This document shows, in pieces, positions 1-6,981 of a DNA stretch of 6,981 nt. Numbering within the stretch: position 1 is the first letter of the stretch; each line of letters begins with the position of its first letter. The stretch lies in assembly GCA_016840425.1 (NCBI GenBank), contig JAEOSI010000122.1, positions 1 to 6,981 of the forward strand, given 5' to 3'. The DNA comes from Candidatus Wukongarchaeum yapensis (GTDB lineage Archaea; Asgardarchaeota; Wukongarchaeia; Wukongarchaeales; Wukongarchaeaceae). Both the position numbers and the translations under genes were made by a program. Under the pieces are notes generated by a model. The model searched no databases. It was not told the DNA's origin and worked only from the letters and a program-made list of their open reading frames with translations.

Positions 1-1656
1 CGTATTTTGACTGAAATTCCCCGCTAGATCGAAAGTATATACGTTTGAAGGTTTTCCACGAATCCATTCTCCATTTTTTCTATGAACAATTTTAAGGACA
101 GCATCCATCATTATAGCGGACACGATTTCTATAGCGGATAGACTGGCAACAGTACATTTACTTGCAAAATCAGGACTTTCAGGAAAGCCTCTAACCCACC
201 TTAAATCCCTTTGATAACAACCAATACACGAATAATCCTGTTCGGATAACACTACCCTTACAGATCCTCTAGTTCCTTCAACTCCACCATTTAAAAAGGG
301 CTTTTCCGCCGCCAAGCTTATGGTTTGAAGCGTTCTTCTCGTGCTAAAATTATCAACACAAGTAGCTACTATATCAACATTTTGAATCATTTTTTCAACT
401 TTTCTCAAACTGGCCTCCAAATCAAACATCATCACCAGCCTGTTTGTTCCCAAGAGTATCGCTGGCATGTTTGCATTAGGAATCTCGAACATATCAGCTT
501 TTACCTCTATAAAAGGAAAATTCTCACCCACCCATTCTTTAACAGCTGTAACCTTAGATTTTCCCACATCGCCTAGCGTGTAAAGACTCTGCCTAAAAGT
601 GTTTTCTGCCTCCACCCTATCCCTGTCTACTACTTCAAGGCTCCCAATCCCGTGTAAACAAAGTAATCTTATGAGTTCACACCCAACAGTTCCTAACCCG
701 CAAACTAAAACCTTTGTTTCACTAAGTTTTTCCATATCATAGTTCATTTTTTTAATCCTGTCGAAAAGTTTTTCTTTCAGCGTTTCAGCTCCGATACTCA
801 TGATTGTATGACTTTTATCCCTATCTCCCTTTATGATTATGTTTTCTTGGGGGATTTTTTGGATTTTCACAGGCATGGTGGAGGCAAACATTTTTACCAA
901 ATAGTAATTGAAATCGATCCAGTTCTTTTCTTGTAAGACTTTACAGAATAAGAACTGCTTACTTCGGGTTTTGTTGTAGTAATTACCCATCAATATCTCT
1001 TCAAGGAAAGTCACATCTTTAATTTTAGAATAATGCCATAAACCCCAACTACTCTGAATCCCTTCCTTGTTCCCGTAGGACACAGGTATTAAGCCCTCAT
1101 CATCTTCTATTTCCTTGATTAAGCCCTTCTCCTCCCCTTTTCTTAAGAGCTCTAAAACCCTTCCTTCGAATGCGAAAAGTAAATTCTCATCCACACCTAG
1201 TATCTCATCCTTTCCAATCTCTTGAAATTTGGCGTTGATGGAGATACGAGGTTGGAAAAATGAAAGCTCTAAATTATCCCCCATAAGACAAGCTATACCA
1301 TAAATCTTAGGAAAGATTATAGGATTATCGGTTATAAGGAGACCTTCAACCCACTTTTCCATAATTACACTATCAATCCCCGAATAACTGCTTAGTCCGT
1401 GGGGGTGAGAGTGCCAATTTCCCAAAATAGAGAGCCCAGGATGGGCGCCTAAAAGTTCTGCATAAGTTGTTGGAGAAATCTTAACTATCCCAGGCGACTC
1501 TTCTGCTTTTAAATCCCGCAAGATCTTTTTTATGAAAACAGAATCTTCAGAAAAATTCCCTAAAAACCAGCCGCCGATCTCCCTGTCTCTTATATCTTTT
1601 ACAAGTTTTTCAAGTTCTAAATATGCTTCAGAACCAATCACTACCTTAAAAGTCAA
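1..1656 (-). CDS. JAB/JAMM metalloprotease - middle domain - ThiF/MoeB/E1-family activating enzyme fusion (C-terminus truncated by window edge, at least 552 aa)
   Basis: Hand translation gives an uninterrupted minus-strand frame from TTG at 1656 to position 1. An upstream in-frame TGA lies at 1704-1702 and an AGGGGA RBS at 1668-1663. N-terminus: MTFKVVIGSEAYLELEKLVKDIRDREIGGWFLG...ILGNWHSHPHGLSSYSGID, a complete JAMM motif (E26, H82-x-H84, x7-S92-x2-D95). C-terminal part: KVLVCGLGTVG (GxGxxG, G320-G325), VVDRDRVEAENTFRQSLY, DVGKSK, VDIVATCVDNFSTR, CIGC (C477/C480) and putative catalytic C501. Missing from the ORF track because no stop codon lies in the window. Confidence 0.92.
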   Translation of the reverse strand, partial: MTFKVVIGSEAYLELEKLVKDIRDREIGGWFLGNFSEDSVFIKKILRDLKAEESPGIVKISPTTYAELLGAHPGLSILGNWHSHPHGLSSYSGIDSVIMEKWVEGLLITDNPIIFPKIYGIACLMGDNLELSFFQPRISINAKFQEIGKDEILGVDENLLFAFEGRVLELLRKGEEKGLIKEIEDDEGLIPVSYGNKEGIQSSWGLWHYSKIKDVTFLEEILMGNYYNKTRSKQFLFCKVLQEKNWIDFNYYLVKMFASTMPVKIQKIPQENIIIKGDRDKSHTIMSIGAETLKEKLFDRIKKMNYDMEKLSETKVLVCGLGTVGCELIRLLCLHGIGSLEVVDRDRVEAENTFRQSLYTLGDVGKSKVTAVKEWVGENFPFIEVKADMFEIPNANMPAILLGTNRLVMMFDLEASLRKVEKMIQNVDIVATCVDNFSTRRTLQTISLAAEKPFLNGGVEGTRGSVRVVLSEQDYSCIGCYQRDLRWVRGFPESPDFASKCTVASLSAIEIVSAIMMDAVLKIVHRKNGEWIRGKPSNVYTFDLAGNFSQNT

Positions 1657-1662
1657 AAAATA

Positions 1663-1694
1663 TCCCCTTAAAAAACTATGAAAAACGCTATAAA
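1663..1694 (-). promoter_or_regulatory. Possible TATA box (TTTATAGC, 1694-1687) and RBS (AGGGGA, 1668-1663) for the JAB-E1 gene
   Basis: The TATA-like element lies about 31 nt upstream of the TTG start, within the 95-bp gap between the two ubiquitin-system genes. Confidence 0.35.
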
Positions 1695-1751
1695 TAGACT
1701 GTCATAAAAAAGCAAATATCCGATTTACTCAGTTAAAGAAATTATATGAAA

Positions 1752-2369
1752 CTAGATTAGATGGAACTGCTCTTTTAACATAGTGACTATCATGCTTAAT
1801 GGATTTTCCGTATAACGAACCTGTTTCCATGCCCTGTTAAAATCCTCATCCTGGAAATGAATTCTTCCAGTAACAGTGTCAACACACTGATGATTTAGGG
1901 GAGGATGTATTATTACGCATGGAGGAACCGCTGGATAGCCTATAGAAGGCAAGATGAAAACCTTATACTTCTCCTCTTTTCCACCCCTTGTTTTTACACA
2001 ATTTTTAAAGACTCCTGCGCCTAGATTTTCAGGTATCAAAGCTTCCCAATCTCTATGATATTTTTCAATGTGTAAAAGAGCATGTTTTGCAAAAACCTGG
2101 AACACTGTCGACGGAGTTTCTAACACTGATCCGTAAGGTTGTTCAAAAGACCAACAAATAACGCTTCCTTCATCAATACTCTCACCAATCTTCATCTCAG
2201 GAGATAAGGTTCTTTTAAAAGTGCTTAAGATTATCGGATAGCCCTCGAGACTATACTTCTCGCGTAGAAGGTTTATAATTGTTTGAACACTTTCTTCTCC
2301 TGAAAAATAAACATCTTCATCTTGCCACCCTTGCTCAAAATTAAACAGTTTTACACCGATTTTGCCCAT
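1752..2369 (-). CDS. Ubiquitin-like (beta-grasp) domain fused to a UBC/E2-fold domain (205 aa)
   Basis: ORF track plus a GGTGA RBS at 2386-2382. Residues 1-80 follow the ubiquitin pattern: FSGEESVQTIINLLREKYSL resembles [20 protein letters not shown], and RTLSPEMKIGESIDEGSVICWSFEQPYG resembles [29 protein letters not shown]. Residues ~85-205 carry the UBC signature KYKVFILPSIGYPAVPPCVII-HPPLNHQCVDTVTGRIHF...W (YPxxPP, an HPN-like HQC, and GxI-H in place of GxI-C). The CDS is well supported; the domain calls are pattern-based. Confidence 0.75.
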   Translation of the reverse strand: MGKIGVKLFNFEQGWQDEDVYFSGEESVQTIINLLREKYSLEGYPIILSTFKRTLSPEMKIGESIDEGSVICWSFEQPYGSVLETPSTVFQVFAKHALLHIEKYHRDWEALIPENLGAGVFKNCVKTRGGKEEKYKVFILPSIGYPAVPPCVIIHPPLNHQCVDTVTGRIHFQDEDFNRAWKQVRYTENPLSMIVTMLKEQFHLI

Positions 2370-2646: not shown

Positions 2647-3006
2647 TTACGTTACATTTTTTACCTTTTCTAAACATTCAAGAGCTATTTTTAAACAGGA
2701 GAAAAGCGCTTTGAGCTTGTCTAAATCCTTTTCTTCGGAGATTTTGAAGATTATTTCCCTTATTTTAGCAGTGATTTGGGCGCCCATATCACCAAATTCT
2801 TCTTGAACATAAAGCGCTTCTTCTGATTCTCCCGGTTTCAGAATAACAACGTTACGATCACAGCCGGCGCAATAGATTTTCCCACCTACATCAAACAAAG
2901 GAGAGTGACATGCAGGACAGGTTTCAGCAAGCATGGTGGCCCCTGAGCGGAAAAGATCCGCCATCCGCTTTATCTTTTCTGTATCTTCATTTTCTGAGCT
3001 ATTCAT
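2647..3006 (-). CDS. UPF0148 / Sjogren's syndrome-scleroderma autoantigen 1 (Auto_anti-p27) family Zn-ribbon protein
   Basis: KRMADLFRSGATMLAETCPACHSPLF...KIYCAGC is the family signature (two CxxC pairs) followed by a helical tail. GAGGAG RBS at 3018-3013. Lies next to UPF0147, as is common in archaea. Confidence 0.9.
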   Translation of the reverse strand: MNSSENEDTEKIKRMADLFRSGATMLAETCPACHSPLFDVGGKIYCAGCDRNVVILKPGESEEALYVQEEFGDMGAQITAKIREIIFKISEEKDLDKLKALFSCLKIALECLEKVKNVT

Positions 3007-3126: not shown

Positions 3127-3393
3127 TCATCCATAATCTATGATGGTCGCTAGTAGAGATACGGCCTTATAAAGAGTTGTACGGGCGTAAGCTGGACAAT
3201 TCGGATCTTCCGGCAGCGGTTCTACGATATCGTGGGCGTTACTTGCCTTAACGGCGTACGTCCCTTCTCCCGTCTTTAACATATCTATAGCCTCTGATGC
3301 GCCTCTCCGAATGTTTCTTGGAACATTAGTATCATTAGCAATTCGTTCTAGGAGAGAAACTGTGTAATTTATTTTCTCTTCATCTGTACTCAT
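3127..3393 (-). CDS. UPF0147 family protein (88 aa)
   Basis: LERIANDTNVPRNIRRGASEAIDML...VKASNAHDIVEPLPEDPNCPAYARTTLYKAVSLL matches the UPF0147 pattern. Start moved from the track's 3435 to ATG 3393, which has a GAGGGG RBS at 3407-3402. Confidence 0.9.
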   Translation of the reverse strand: MSTDEEKINYTVSLLERIANDTNVPRNIRRGASEAIDMLKTGEGTYAVKASNAHDIVEPLPEDPNCPAYARTTLYKAVSLLATIIDYG

Positions 3394-3432
3394 TGACTTT
3401 TCCCCTCGTCCTAATTTATAAAATATCTTATG

Positions 3433-3466
3433 CATTTATATAAGCAAACAAAGCTATATAATTTTT
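3433..3466. promoter_or_regulatory. TATA-like elements in the divergent UPF0147/radB intergenic region
   Basis: TTTATATAAGC and GCTATATAATTTTT lie 40-70 nt upstream of the UPF0147 ATG. Assignment to a strand or gene is uncertain in this AT-rich DNA. Confidence 0.35.
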
Positions 3467-3677
3467 GAACTCATAACTTTTTGAATTTTATAATCATTTT
3501 TATGTTAAGAAAAAGGGGATTTTGGAACTCTTTAAGATTTGTCTTTTGGTTCGTACATTTTTCAAAAATCATAAAATGGGTTTTTTGGTTCGCTAATCTT
3601 TTAAAGAGATGTTTTTTTCAGTTTTATGAGAATTGTTATTTTTGGTCTTTTTCACTTTTTTGAGCGGTGGCATTTTG

Positions 3678-4382
3678 ATGAATGGTTATATATCTTCGGG
3701 GTGTAAGCTTCTTGATGCTCTTTTGGATGGTGGTTTTCCTAGGGGTAGACTTGTTCAAGTTTATGGTAGAAAATTTGTGGGAAAAACCACTCTTGCCCTC
3801 CAGATTGCTCTTGTAAATGCTGAAAAAGGCTTGAAAACCATCTTTATAGATACGGGACAGGCTTATCTTCCTTACAGGCTTTCTCAGATGATAAAACAAA
3901 GGAATGAGAAAGATCTTGAGCAGATTTTTTTTATCAAAGCAAAATCGTTCAAAAGCCAGTTGAAGATCATAGATAAAATAAACTTTTACATAACACCAAA
4001 AACATGCGCCATAATAGTTGACAACATAAGTCAACACTATCTTACTGAGCGTTTAAAATCAAAGGATCAGAAAAATATGACCTTGGGAAGGCTTCTAGCA
4101 TATCAGATAGCAAGTTTGAACTATATAGCAGAAGCTCACAATATAGCCGTTGTGGTGACAAACAACGGTTATTTTAAGAAGGCAGAAAAAGAATACGTCC
4201 CCGTAGCAAGAGGAATAATGGAAAAATATTCCGACATAATTCTTCTCGTGGAACACGACGCTGTAAAACCTAGTGCAAGAAAGATCATCCTAAAAAAGAA
4301 ACTTCTAGACAAAGAGTATCCCTCCCTTACAAAAACTGCTTTTTTCACACGTGTATCTCTAACTGAAGAAGGGCTAATCTAG
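3678..4382 (+). CDS. radB: RadB-like RecA/Rad51-paralog ATPase (234 aa, no N-terminal HhH domain)
   Basis: ISSGCKLLDALLDGGFPRGRLVQVYGRKFVGKTTLALQIA (Walker A), TIFIDTG, AIIVDNIS (Walker B), LNYIAEAHNIAVVVTN. Start moved to ATG 3678, with a GCGGTGG RBS-like motif at 3664-3670. RadB versus another paralog (aRadC type) cannot be resolved by eye. Confidence 0.8.
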   Translation: MNGYISSGCKLLDALLDGGFPRGRLVQVYGRKFVGKTTLALQIALVNAEKGLKTIFIDTGQAYLPYRLSQMIKQRNEKDLEQIFFIKAKSFKSQLKIIDKINFYITPKTCAIIVDNISQHYLTERLKSKDQKNMTLGRLLAYQIASLNYIAEAHNIAVVVTNNGYFKKAEKEYVPVARGIMEKYSDIILLVEHDAVKPSARKIILKKKLLDKEYPSLTKTAFFTRVSLTEEGLI

Positions 4383-4395
4383 TCCTGAAAAGTTT

Positions 4396-4878
4396 TTAGG
4401 GCGCTTGACTTGTTCCTCCAAATTTTCTGAAGGCGTAGGGATTAAGCTTGCTTTCCAGCATATAATTTACGCCGAAATAGCTTACTAATATCAAAGCTAT
4501 ACCCGCATAAAGGAGGAGATTTGCATATTTTGGGTCATAAGCGTATTTAGTACTCTGATATAACAGGATAAAACCTATCCCTCCAACAATAAAAAGAATA
4601 CCTGCAACTAGTCCCTCAAGGAGAAACATTCTATCAAACTGAGGATACAAGAATATGGGACTACCCGTTGAAGTAAAAGCCAAGGCTGTAGGCTTTTCAA
4701 TAAGGATATAGATCCCGCCACTTAGAAGAAACCAGATCGTAACTAAAACTAAGACTGTCATCCTATTTTGTGTAGGCCTTGGCAACTCAAACTTAGGCTT
4801 TCTAAGTTCCAATTTCGGCCTCTTGATAAAGGGTATAATCCACTTAAAATGGGGCTTGGAAATTTTCAAAAAACCCAT
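4396..4878 (-). CDS. OST3/OST6-family oligosaccharyltransferase accessory subunit, OSTC/DC2-like (3 TM, no thioredoxin domain)
   Basis: PFIKRPKLELRKP...MTVLVLVTIWFLLSGGIYILIEKP...MFLLEGLVAGILFIVGGIGFILLYQS...LLYAGIALILVSYF...KL parallels the remembered human OSTC/DC2 sequence along its whole length. Likely start is ATG 4878 or TTG 4869 (GTGAGG upstream), rather than the track's GTG 4953. Confidence 0.85.
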   Translation of the reverse strand: MGFLKISKPHFKWIIPFIKRPKLELRKPKFELPRPTQNRMTVLVLVTIWFLLSGGIYILIEKPTALAFTSTGSPIFLYPQFDRMFLLEGLVAGILFIVGGIGFILLYQSTKYAYDPKYANLLLYAGIALILVSYFGVNYMLESKLNPYAFRKFGGTSQAP

Positions 4879-4981
4879 CCTCACAATGCTTGAATAATAA
4901 AGATAATTTTTTGCCCGTTTTATACTTTTATCGCCGTGCTTATAAATTATCACTTTTTATAAAAATCAAATCATATAAAAG

Positions 4982-5209: not shown

Positions 5210-6981
5210 ATGTCTTTTATAAAGAGTGGTTTAGGTTGGATCAAGGATAAAATCTCTCGTCCAAATGTTACTAGAAGCACGGTTCTTCATTACACGGTCT
5301 TATACCTTATCTTGCTTTTAGCTTTCCTATACAGGGTTTATCCTTATTTTAAATATGAACATATCCTTAAGGCTTACGACCCTTATTTCCAACTCCGTAT
5401 GGCGGAATACATAAACGAGAATGGTTTTGGCTCCTTCTTTGACTGGCATGATGAAAGGACGTGGTTTCCTGCAGGAACAGAATGGGGGAAAGCGGCTTAT
5501 CCAGGAACACCACTAGTCGCCGTGGCAATTTATAAGATCCTTAATTGGGTAGGATTTAGCATAAGTTTGTATACTGTTTGCTATTTTTTCCCCGCTATTT
5601 TTGGAACCTTAACAGTTTACATGATCTATAAACTCGGTACAGAACTGGCAAATGAAAAGGTTGGATTAATCGCGGCCTTCTTCTTATCCTTTAATCCTGC
5701 TTATGCTCAAAGATCAGTCGTAGGATTCTTCGATAACGAAGCTTTAGGAATATTCCTCATCATAACATCTTTTTACTTCTTCATAAAAAGCTTAAAGACT
5801 GGGTCGGTTACCAACGGCATCCTTGCAGGATTGTTCTTAGGATTCTTGGCTGCAAGTTGGGGTGCTTTCAGGTTTGCTTTAGATATGATTGCCATATATG
5901 CTTTTATTCTTCTCCTTCAAAAAAGATATTCAAACCGTTTACTCATATCTTACTCCCTAACAGTTTCCACAGCCTTACTCATGACTACGATAGTTCCAAG
6001 AACTGGCATGAGTATTGTTACGGGTGTTGAAGGAATTTTCCCCCTAGCAGTAATGGGGCTCCTGATTTTCTACGGATTGACAAACTACTTTTCAGACTTG
6101 ATGCCTAGGACTAGAAGTCCTTTTATGGAAAAATTGAGCGATTTATGGCTTCCAATCATTGTCGTCATTATTCCTTTATTTCTAGTTGCTCTATGGGCTT
6201 TTGGAGGCATCACTGGTATAAGCGGTAAGTTCCTAGGCGTACTATTACCAACAATAAGGGAGGGCACGCCCCTCATAAACTCAGTAAGTGAACACTTACC
6301 CCTTTCATGGGCCAACCTTTACTACTCCGTGGAAATACTGCTTTTCTTAGTGCCTGCAGGCGCTTATTTCCTGATGAGGAATCCAAGCGAAGAAAATATT
6401 TTTCTCCTAGTATTCGGTCTAACAACTATCTACTTTGCTTCTTCAATGGTGCGTTTAATCTTAATTTTTGCCCCTGCAGCATGTCTCATAGCCGCCCTAG
6501 CTATCGACAAAGTTTTGACACCCTACGCATTAGCCTTAAAAGAAAAACTAGCACTAAGCAGAAGAAAAGTAAGAATAAGCGCAATGATCGGAAAAGAACA
6601 AGCAGCAGTAGTCTACATATTCATAGGCATTCTCCTATCTCTAAACATGTGGCACGGCGTACAAGCAGTAGATGAACGATTAGGCCAACCCGAAATGGCA
6701 CCTACCATCGGAGACACAGTACTTGATGACTGGCAGCAGACTTTAGAATTTATGGATACTGCGCTTAATGAAAACACAGTAGTCCTATTTTGGTGGGATT
6801 ACGGCCACTGGGTGACGGCTCTAGGGAACGTTAGAACGCTTGCGGATGGGTCTACGATTAATAGTCTTCAGATTGGGCAGATTGGTCGTGCTTTGGTATT
6901 TAATGAGACGGAGTCTCTTAAGATTTTGTGGGCTTTTAGTGTGGATTATGTTTTGGTGAATTTTGCGGCGGCTGAGATGAA
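5210..6981 (+). CDS. aglB: STT3/AglB oligosaccharyltransferase catalytic subunit (3' truncated by window, at least 590 aa)
   Basis: Hand translation is open from ATG 5210 (GAGGGG RBS at 5198-5203) to the window end. Motifs: AYDPYF (D57, 5378), FFDNE (D175/E177, 5732-5740), SVSEH (6281-6295), MVRL, WWDYG (6791-6805) and DGSTINSLQI, with many hydrophobic TM segments. Confidence 0.96.
   Translation, partial: MSFIKSGLGWIKDKISRPNVTRSTVLHYTVLYLILLLAFLYRVYPYFKYEHILKAYDPYFQLRMAEYINENGFGSFFDWHDERTWFPAGTEWGKAAYPGTPLVAVAIYKILNWVGFSISLYTVCYFFPAIFGTLTVYMIYKLGTELANEKVGLIAAFFLSFNPAYAQRSVVGFFDNEALGIFLIITSFYFFIKSLKTGSVTNGILAGLFLGFLAASWGAFRFALDMIAIYAFILLLQKRYSNRLLISYSLTVSTALLMTTIVPRTGMSIVTGVEGIFPLAVMGLLIFYGLTNYFSDLMPRTRSPFMEKLSDLWLPIIVVIIPLFLVALWAFGGITGISGKFLGVLLPTIREGTPLINSVSEHLPLSWANLYYSVEILLFLVPAGAYFLMRNPSEENIFLLVFGLTTIYFASSMVRLILIFAPAACLIAALAIDKVLTPYALALKEKLALSRRKVRISAMIGKEQAAVVYIFIGILLSLNMWHGVQAVDERLGQPEMAPTIGDTVLDDWQQTLEFMDTALNENTVVLFWWDYGHWVTALGNVRTLADGSTINSLQIGQIGRALVFNETESLKILWAFSVDYVLVNFAAAEM

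Follow-up and report, generated by a model that had tools for sequence, protein, structure and literature searches.

A two-gene locus of the Asgard archaeon Candidatus Wukongarchaeum yapensis and its proposed ubiquitin-like conjugation module

Can a whole ubiquitin-like conjugation cascade be held in two proteins? The question is raised by the left end of contig JAEOSI010000122.1 of Candidatus Wukongarchaeum yapensis, whose 6,981 nucleotides, referred to here as the window, are the whole of one contig (G000:C119) of a 2.16-Mb archaeal genome bin that is 92% complete. Two adjacent, co-oriented genes on its minus strand encode a 205-aa protein that joins a ubiquitin-like (Ubl) domain to an E2-like domain and a 601-aa protein that joins a JAMM (JAB) protease domain, a middle domain 'x' and an E1-type adenylation domain; a preliminary description of this DNA had placed these open reading frames (ORFs) correctly and named all four kinds of domain correctly. 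We consider it fairly likely, with every step inferred, that the two genes form a compact Ubl protein-conjugation module that has no E3 and is a second Ubl system beside the canonical ubiquitin genes. The processing that we propose for the 205-aa protein appears well supported, if indirectly, by split operons in relatives, by the alignment of a Gly-Gly (GG) terminus with the fusion junction and by a predicted complex of the two proteins.

The two genes and the domains they encode

The pair is made up of the following features, given with the basis for each.

1752..2369 (stop codon included), minus strand: Ubl-E2-like fusion gene, 205 aa; ORF list, orthologues of 90-93% identity, family of 26 or more Asgard proteins.
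2130..2369, minus strand: ubiquitin-like beta-grasp, residues 1-80, ending in Tyr79-Gly80 (Gly80 codon 2130-2132); model and fold matches.
2112..2129, minus strand: linker, residues 81-86, the predicted cleaved junction; low predicted local distance difference test score (pLDDT), length variable or linker absent among homologues, lies in the JAMM site of the complex model.
1755..2111, minus strand: UBC-fold E2-like domain, residues 87-205, with Cys162 (1884-1886) and His171 (1857-1859); model, fold matches and conservation.
1657..1751, minus strand: intergenic spacer of 95 bases; sequence, with a GGGG(A) ribosome-binding-like motif ahead of a TTG start.
1..1656, minus strand: JAB-x-E1 gene, residues 1-552 of 601; ORF list, remainder on contig C17.
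1207..1656, minus strand: JAMM/MPN+ metalloprotease domain, about residues 1-150; Pfam Prok-JAB, residues invariant across 12 family members.
1579-1581, 1411-1413, 1405-1407, 1381-1383 and 1372-1374, minus strand: JAMM codons E26, H82, H84, S92 and D95, respectively; codon check.
787..1206, minus strand: middle domain 'x', about residues 151-290; conserved alongside JAB in relatives, conserved columns G205, W207, K229 and F235.
1..786, minus strand: E1 (ThiF-type) adenylation domain, residues 291-552 in the window; ThiF match, GxGxxG.
226-228, 217-219 and 154-156, minus strand: E1 codons C477 and C480 (zinc pair) and crossover-loop Cys501, respectively; codon check.

The contig ends, at position 1, within the JAB-x-E1 gene, which leaves an ORF of 552 aa in the window. 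The start of contig C17 overlaps the left end of the window by exactly 144 bases and extends the frame by 49 residues, among which lies a second zinc pair, C559/C562. The joined sequence is collinear across the junction with that of a genome of the same genus (G001), and the completed protein, at 601 aa, has the same length as its 92%-identical orthologue P0002.

The 205-aa protein is unrecognised by Pfam, NCBIfam and PADLOC, the sole trace being a match to UQ_con at E 0.2. An exhaustive HMMER search of 1.84 billion representatives returned eight relatives only; profile search found 26, all the named ones being Helarchaeota, Lokiarchaeota or Promethearchaeota. An AlphaFold2 model built from a 9-sequence alignment has a mean pLDDT of 82.8, and both of the folds that the preliminary description had made the test of its own reading, a beta-grasp followed by a UBC/RWD fold, are present in the predicted structures. 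Residues 1-77 are predicted to take up a beta-beta-alpha-beta-beta topology, which superimposes on SUMO, ubiquitin, NEDD8 and ISG15 with Z of 11.6-10.2 and a root-mean-square deviation (rmsd) of ~2 A over 72-77 aligned residues; in the match to Smt3, model range 1-80 pairs with Smt3 residues 21-98. A specific likeness of this domain to ATG8, ATG12 or UFM1 was considered and not seen, the top matches being SUMO, NEDD8, ubiquitin and ISG15.

Residues 78-86 behind the beta-grasp are disordered in the AlphaFold2 model (pLDDT <50), and Gly80 is nearly invariant at the junction in the family alignment. In relatives in which the Ubl is a protein of its own, it ends in ...PEPIGG, a further one to six residues and the stop (GGE, GGM, GGH, GGLGNF, GGVPYI), and this GG aligns with Tyr79-Gly80 of the window protein; thus, even the unfused Ubls would be pro-proteins that need trimming after the Gly. 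Judged by predicted fold and alignment, the domain has what is expected of a conjugatable modifier, a beta-grasp that ends in an exposable Gly.

Complex prediction for orthologue P0002 with the 205-aa protein of the window gave an interface score (interaction prediction score from aligned errors, ipSAE) of 0.89, the best control giving 0.00; the mark applied to this score is reached by 58 of 80 solved complexes and by 2 of 110 mismatched pairs. The runs had at least 76% of their contacts in common, with a partner pLDDT of at least 79. JAB residues 26, 28, 56-66, 77-85 and 92-117 contact Ubl residues 9-19, 38-54 and 72-83, and in the predicted complex the stretch 74-83 passes through the JAMM site. 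Because this interface joins the JAMM catalytic residues and the strands beside them to the body of the Ubl and to its tail (72-83), the scissile junction would sit in the protease site. Because JAMM-ubiquitin complexes have already been solved, the score speaks for likeness and is not proof. The earlier proposal that the JAB domain releases the Ubl by a cut after Gly80 fits the near-invariance of that residue, the split genes with GG and a tail, the disordered linker and the predicted complex.

In the 601-aa protein, Prok-JAB matches residues 25-107 (E 1.2e-6; 28.8 bits against a Pfam cut-off of 25), and the domain probably reaches to about residue 150. Its JAMM/MPN+ motif, Glu ... His-x-His ... 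Ser-x-x-Asp, is intact, as had been claimed for E26 and H82 in particular; both have the codons assigned to them, and across 12 family members there is no variation at E26, G28-G29, W81, H82, H84 or D95 and almost none at S92. Among solved structures the nearest to this domain is the Caldiarchaeum Rpn11-like protein (E 7e-4), and an Atlas model of a homologue matches JAB over its residues 5-170 with a pLDDT of 0.48. The middle domain, of ~140 residues, accompanies JAB in all relatives; it has no match in Pfam or the PDB and no Atlas lead beyond JAB, where the window orthologue scores 0.84 at most. A likeness of residues 167-234 to the ETS/PU.1 winged helix (phmmer E 0.0075) was not recovered with the 12-sequence family profile and was set aside as chance. 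The profile of the JAB-x region did not match ATG7 in the PDB, and the N-terminal domain of ATG7 was not detected by sequence profile.

The E1 part matches ThiF over residues 307-534 (E 1.1e-40) and has the GxGxxG motif, the conserved Arg/Gln, Lys and Asp, and the CxxC pairs C477/C480 and C559/C562, its nucleotide-binding and zinc residues being invariant. The zinc site and the candidate Cys501 of the preliminary description have held up: C477, C480 and Cys501 are encoded where it had put them, and 10 of 11 family E1s have Cys501, which lies in a 'CT' motif where the crossover loop ends. In a single uninterrupted alignment of yeast Atg7 with the family profile, Cys507 falls on Cys501 and both zinc pairs match. 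With a Cys in the crossover loop and no inserted Cys domain, this would be an E1 of the UBA5/ATG7 type. The 11-sequence E1 profile scores 113 bits for ATG7, 98 for UBA1, 90 for UBA3 and UBA5, 85 for MoeB and 77 for ThiF, and a profile of the window's own clade scores 95 for UBA1, 83 for ATG7, 78 for UBA5 and 76 for MoeB; the E1 thus looks slightly nearer to eukaryotic E1s than to MoeB/ThiF, by small margins. PADLOC gave generic CBASS 'E1-E2' and JAB matches only. A tblastn search for the JAB+E1 protein on plasmids found none, the only matches being of MoeB/ThiF type over the E1 part at <27% identity.

Residues 86-205 of the 205-aa protein, folded alone, reach a pLDDT of 91.8, and their top 50 structural matches all belong to the UBC superfold (E2, UEV, UFC1, Atg3 or RWD): E2s match with Z 10.2-10.9 and rmsd ~3 A over 107-110 residues, Atg3 with Z 9.3 and rmsd 2.8 A over 111 residues, and UFC1 with a Foldseek E of 4e-4. 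The residues Tyr145, Pro149, Pro150, Pro156, Cys162, Trp181 and Asn189 do not vary in any of 22 C-terminal domains or of 17 other sequences. When the family profile is aligned with UBE2L6 by HMMER, Cys162 falls on the Asn of the HPN motif and His171 on the catalytic Cys, and residues 162-171 form a short hairpin in the model. We propose that nucleophile and helper residue are swapped in this domain relative to canonical E2s, the two residues making up a candidate active site. UQ_con weakly matches 13 of the 22 members (best E 0.006, always under the Pfam cut-off), and no bacterial Prok-E2 family matches any of the 22. The domain, then, has the fold of a canonical UBC E2 and lacks its HPN motif, its Cys ~8 residues downstream and an above-cut-off score.

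Split and fused forms among the Asgard archaea

A family profile search of 400 Asgard genomes found the family in 11 of them, in 9 of 85 genera. Loci were sorted with purpose-built JAB-x and E1 profiles on six-frame ORFs. The arrangement is not chance: split or fused, the genes are found together at no fewer than 10 loci from several Asgard lineages. The fully split loci have, in order, genes for the Ubl (~105-125 aa), the E2-like protein (~120 aa), JAB-x (~350 aa) and the E1 (~360 aa), contiguous in L047-L050 and with one or two inserted genes in L045, L051 and L053. The Ubl and E2-like domains are fused, with JAB-x and E1 separate, in a Jordarchaeia genome (L014/L055) and on a metagenome contig (L016), and on a further contig (L017) a fused Ubl-E2-like gene is followed by JAB-x before the contig ends, ahead of any E1. 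Two fused genes occur in the window's genus only, and the window form is the most fused version of an Asgard four-gene operon. Paralogous Ubl-E2-like genes are also found with no JAB or E1 nearby (L019, L054, L058, L046, L052, L057). Genomes with the titles Hodarchaeota, Jordarchaeia, Helarchaeota and Lokiarchaeota are among those that carry the family; every homologue with a name is Asgard, and as far as the searches show the family has so far been confined to Asgard archaea.

These loci have several features of their own. The separate E1s of the Helarchaeota-type operons (L045, L047-L051, L053) begin with a conserved N-terminal extension of ~95 aa ('FQNPDTGD...PPIFFT...LEEDD') that is missing from the window protein and could be an extra beta-grasp or an E2-docking domain. 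A second small JAB protein (143-148 aa) follows the E1 at L014:2968-3414 and L016:5562-5990 (Prok-JAB E 8e-6 and 9e-11, respectively) and may be a dedicated deconjugase; none adjoins the window pair. On the opposite strand, 3 kb from the Jordarchaeia operon, L014:6061-6798 (-) encodes a protein that has HEAT repeats and, at its C terminus, a ubiquitin domain (PF00240, E 9e-10). One full Ubl/E2-like/JAB-x/E1 operon of the Asgard kind (L064; DATKTP010000162.1 = G157:C162) lies on a contig titled 'Candidatus Deferrimicrobium sp.', a bacterium; a genome search places the genome of this contig in the Asgard phylum, and the label or the binning is probably wrong. A distant match, the 794-aa ThiF+JAB protein P0005 (L012/L013, ENA scaffolds, 8001-10385), was rejected as unrelated to the Asgard family; its neighbours are a metallo-beta-lactamase-fold gene, a serine recombinase and TraG/TrwB-like genes, and the whole has the look of a bacterial 6A-MBL-type system carried by a mobile element.

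A proposed cycle and the systems it resembles

The cycle that we propose would begin with the JAMM domain of the 601-aa protein binding the N-terminal beta-grasp of the 205-aa precursor and cutting after Gly80, which would release a Ubl of ~9 kDa and an E2-like protein of ~14 kDa. The E1 domain, which is probably homodimeric in the manner of MoeB/UBA5/ATG7, would then adenylate Gly80 and take the Ubl onto the crossover-loop Cys501 as a thioester, from where it would be handed to the invariant Cys162 of the E2-like protein, with His171, on the opposite arm of the same predicted hairpin, perhaps aiding catalysis. The E2-like protein would pass the Ubl to targets, and the same JAMM domain may also take it off again; the conserved middle domain may serve to dock the E2-like protein. 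Elsewhere the same genome encodes one ubiquitin, two canonical UBC E2s and a further two E1s of ThiF type, and the window pair would therefore be an additional Ubl system and not the main one.

A two-gene layout of this kind is not new. Iyer, Burroughs and Aravind (2006; PMC1779556, row 6e) described bacterial operons in which a polyUbl is sometimes fused to an 'inactive E2-like' domain and stands with a JAB-E1 fusion. Ye, Gong, Chambers and Corbett (2024; PMC11601596) named these operons Bub, Type I consisting of BubAB (Ubl-E2), BubCD (JAB-E1) and BubE, and showed that the JAB of BubCD cuts BubAB right after a conserved Gly, conjugation by E1 and E2 following. The preliminary description had taken the architecture to be undescribed and Bub to use other fusions, and on both counts it was mistaken: Type I Bub (6E.1) is [Ubl-E2] + [JAB-E1] (PMC11601596), a layout predicted in 2006 (PMC1779556). 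Because Type I Bub offers a direct experimental precedent, the mechanism proposed here becomes more likely and less novel.

The likeness to Type I Bub covers the pair of fusion proteins and their order, Ubl-E2 and then JAB-E1, each fusion being one mark of membership, and also the single adenylation domain of the E1, the lack of an E3 and, as proposed here, the JAB cut after a conserved Gly. The chemistry, in contrast, would differ, Bub forming oxyesters with an invariant E1 Tyr and an E2 Ser-His-Asp (PMC11601596). The Asgard E1 keeps Cys501 in its crossover loop where the Bub E1 has Tyr, and the Asgard E2-like domain has an invariant Cys at the position of the HPN Asn and His/Asn at that of the canonical Cys, whereas the Bub E2 uses Ser. 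Bub Ubls have one to three beta-grasp domains and the window Ubl one; the window protein has an extra middle domain of ~140 aa; and the host is an Asgard archaeon, with a housekeeping gene context and no defence genes. BubE, a DUF6527 serine protease, is in all Bub operons (PMC11601596), whereas a search for DUF6527/PF20137 found none at E <= 1 in the 92%-complete genome, in which an unassembled copy is possible, and BubE is not among the genes on either side of the window pair or beside the relatives' operons. Measured against the published Bub descriptions, the window system lacks three features that define Bub (BubE, the E2 Ser and the E1 Tyr) and is set apart by them. BubCD, BubB and Cap2 are absent from the listed matches to solved structures, an absence to which no weight is given.

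Other systems are alike in other respects. In Bil (BilABCD) the component order Ubl, E2, JAB, E1 matches that of the split Asgard operons, E1 and E2 are cysteine-based and there is no E3. However, BilA is ISG15-like with two beta-grasps, and the E1 part of the window protein, ~300 aa with one ThiF/adenylation domain and a Cys in the crossover loop, is not an E1 of the Bil kind. The canonical ubiquitin operon of Caldiarchaeum and Asgard archaea is likewise archaeal, has a ubiquitin precursor trimmed by a JAMM protease and includes the Rpn11-like protein nearest to the window JAB among solved structures, but its genes are separate and include one for a RING E3, its E2 is of the HPN-Cys kind and its E1 contains a Cys domain. 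ATG7 with ATG3/ATG10, and UBA5 with UFC1, have the same kind of E1, with a single adenylation domain and a crossover-loop Cys (the 'CT' motif at Atg7 Cys507); the family E1 profile tops at ATG7, the E2-like fold matches UFC1 and Atg3, and the Ubl of the window's clade likewise ends in aromatic-Gly. Against these likenesses stand the small score margins, with UBA1 leading for the window's own clade, a window Ubl that lacks the N-terminal helices of ATG8, and an ATG7 N-terminal domain that went undetected.

Several points weigh against the conjugation module that we propose. Cys162 lies off the canonical E2 cysteine position in the HMMER alignment, with no HPN motif beside it; the best sequence matches of the domain are catalytically inactive UEVs (6zm3_B at E 3e-6, a Plasmodium UEV, Mms2); His171 is replaced by Asn in two members; and that the two residues are probably neighbours is read from a predicted hairpin. 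The E1 of L016, alone in the family, lacks Cys501 and has Thr-Tyr there. The middle domain is left unexplained by any match, and no target or second deconjugase lies near the window pair. Co-transcription has a weak hint behind it: metatranscriptome library X20 gave low-depth contigs within the JAB-x-E1 gene and one contig (1633-1968) that bridges the spacer, in a single low-depth library in which DNA carry-over is possible and which covers 14 of 30 bins at a depth of 2-5, its uncovered parts being uninformative. The mechanism proposed for the family is, moreover, reasoned throughout from sequence, models and analogy.

Let us assume, then, that the E2-like domain is a catalytically inert adaptor of the UEV/RWD type, the E1 alone conjugating, as UbaA does with SAMPs, or the Ubl serving as a sulfur carrier, and that the UBC-fold domain merely binds the Ubl or a partner. 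Such an arrangement would explain the UEVs at the head of the sequence matches and the missing HPN motif and Cys; the AlphaFold DB matches are likewise led by Tsg101, UEV3, Mms2 and AKTIP, and Iyer et al. called the analogous bacterial domain inactive and E2/RWD-like (PMC1779556). The domain also has in common with UEVs such as Mms2/Uev1 and Tsg101 the pattern YP..PP...PCVD..G (its '...PCVD..G' string included); in both, the UBC core is short and the canonical position has no Cys. UEVs, however, are inactive partners of a separate E2, whereas the Asgard gene comes coupled to a Ubl, a JAB and an E1 of its own, and its Cys162 is strictly invariant (22 of 22 and 17 of 17 sequences from distant lineages), with position 171 His in all but two members, where it is Asn; an adaptor would have no need of either. 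The bacterial domain once called inactive, moreover, proved catalytic through a non-canonical residue (PMC11601596). As for sulfur transfer, the E1 has no rhodanese domain and the locus no sulfur-metabolism genes. We therefore consider an inert adaptor unlikely. A different objection is that the 205-aa protein might never be cleaved, the beta-grasp being an integral part of the E2-like enzyme, for docking or regulation, and the JAB acting on other substrates. Fusions of Ubl domains to enzymes are frequent, the window protein ends its beta-grasp in Tyr-Gly, with one Gly in place of GG, and among the paralogous fused proteins L019, L054 and L058 have no JAB or E1 nearby. But the gene split of the relatives falls exactly at the junction, with GG and a short tail kept on the Ubl; Gly80 is nearly invariant, and the predicted complex runs the junction through the JAMM site; and the bacterial counterpart of identical architecture is cleaved (PMC11601596). 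An uncleaved protein appears to us decidedly improbable.

The remaining alternative is that the locus is a bacterial Type I Bub antiviral defence system acquired horizontally, that is, a true 6E.1 member. It would account for the same two fusion proteins in the same order, for the lack of an E3 and for the patchy distribution (11 of 400 Asgard genomes), and bacterial JAB clusters are the feature neighbours that the Atlas gives for the JAB region, if at weak scores of 0.84-0.94. We nevertheless give it very little weight. BubE/DUF6527 was not found in the locus or in the 92%-complete genome; the E1 and the E2-like domain keep Cys501 and Cys162 where Bub has Tyr and Ser-His-Asp; 13 of 22 E2-like members weakly match the eukaryote-type UQ_con, with none matching a Prok-E2 family; the E1 scores highest against eukaryotic E1s; the neighbours are housekeeping genes and not defence genes or mobile elements; and all named homologues are Asgard.

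Surroundings of the pair and implications

To the right of the pair the window encodes an SSSCA1/autoantigen-p27-type zinc-ribbon protein (2647-3006, -), UPF0147 (3127-3435, -) and a RadB-like recombinase paralogue (3633-4382, +), ordinary archaeal genes that are unlinked to the Ubl pair in relatives. Beyond them, an OST3/OST6-family membrane protein gene (4396-4953, -; E 1.4e-10) adjoins the STT3/AglB oligosaccharyltransferase gene (5210-6979, +), a eukaryote-like pairing; the latter leaves the window on the right, where 144 bases of the contig end overlap with contig C70. Together with the RadB, UPF0147 and p27-type zinc-ribbon genes, this pairing marks the host as an Asgard archaeon. The preliminary description had suggested that an E3 or target might lie left of the window. 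This found no support, contig C17 carrying housekeeping genes only, and neither the window nor C17 nor the flanks of the operons of seven relatives showed a RING, E3, defence or mobile-element gene. Just 3' of the E1 gene, ~1.45 kb (G000:C17 145-1600; L003) is absent from the genome of the same genus (G001:C69; L056) and holds a PNPOx-like ORF of 147 aa on the opposite strand. About a dozen studies have yielded metagenomes of marine sediment, marsh and mangrove that contain this DNA.

Minimal, E3-less Ubl conjugation operons are known from bacteria (CBASS Cap2/Cap3, Bil, Bub), where their role is antiviral defence, and in archaea the known systems are SAMP/UbaA and the canonical ubiquitin operon. 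The Asgard module would be a third archaeal kind of Ubl conjugation system after these two, one that appears to combine the layout of Type I Bub with thioester-type cysteines that are kept. A literature search found no paper describing this Asgard family, which is unnamed. What seems to be new here is therefore the family itself, its presence in several Asgard classes, its putative cysteine chemistry, the transposed E2 active site and the unmatched middle domain, the two-gene layout being already known.

Lastly, the domains of the module lean towards archaeal and eukaryotic relatives, and it could be an archaeal relative of the non-canonical eukaryotic systems (ATG12/ATG8-ATG7-ATG10/ATG3 and UFM1-UBA5-UFC1). 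The leads are that the E1 has a single domain with a 'CT' Cys in its crossover loop, that the family profile scores ATG7 above all other solved structures, that the best fold matches of the E2-like domain include UFC1 and Atg3, that the Ubl of the window's clade ends in aromatic-Gly and that a genome of the same genus (G001) is titled Candidatus Hodarchaeota; we give the kinship a slim chance. Current accounts place the origin of the ATG and UFM1 systems in bacteria or state that archaea have no homologues of them; if the kinship were true, their ancestry would likewise lead back to the archaeon from which eukaryotes arose. Should the E2-like site be active, it would be a new solution within the UBC fold. 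As two genes would suffice, the module is directly testable in E. coli, and the series from split to fused genes would be a natural record of conjugation cascades condensing into two proteins.

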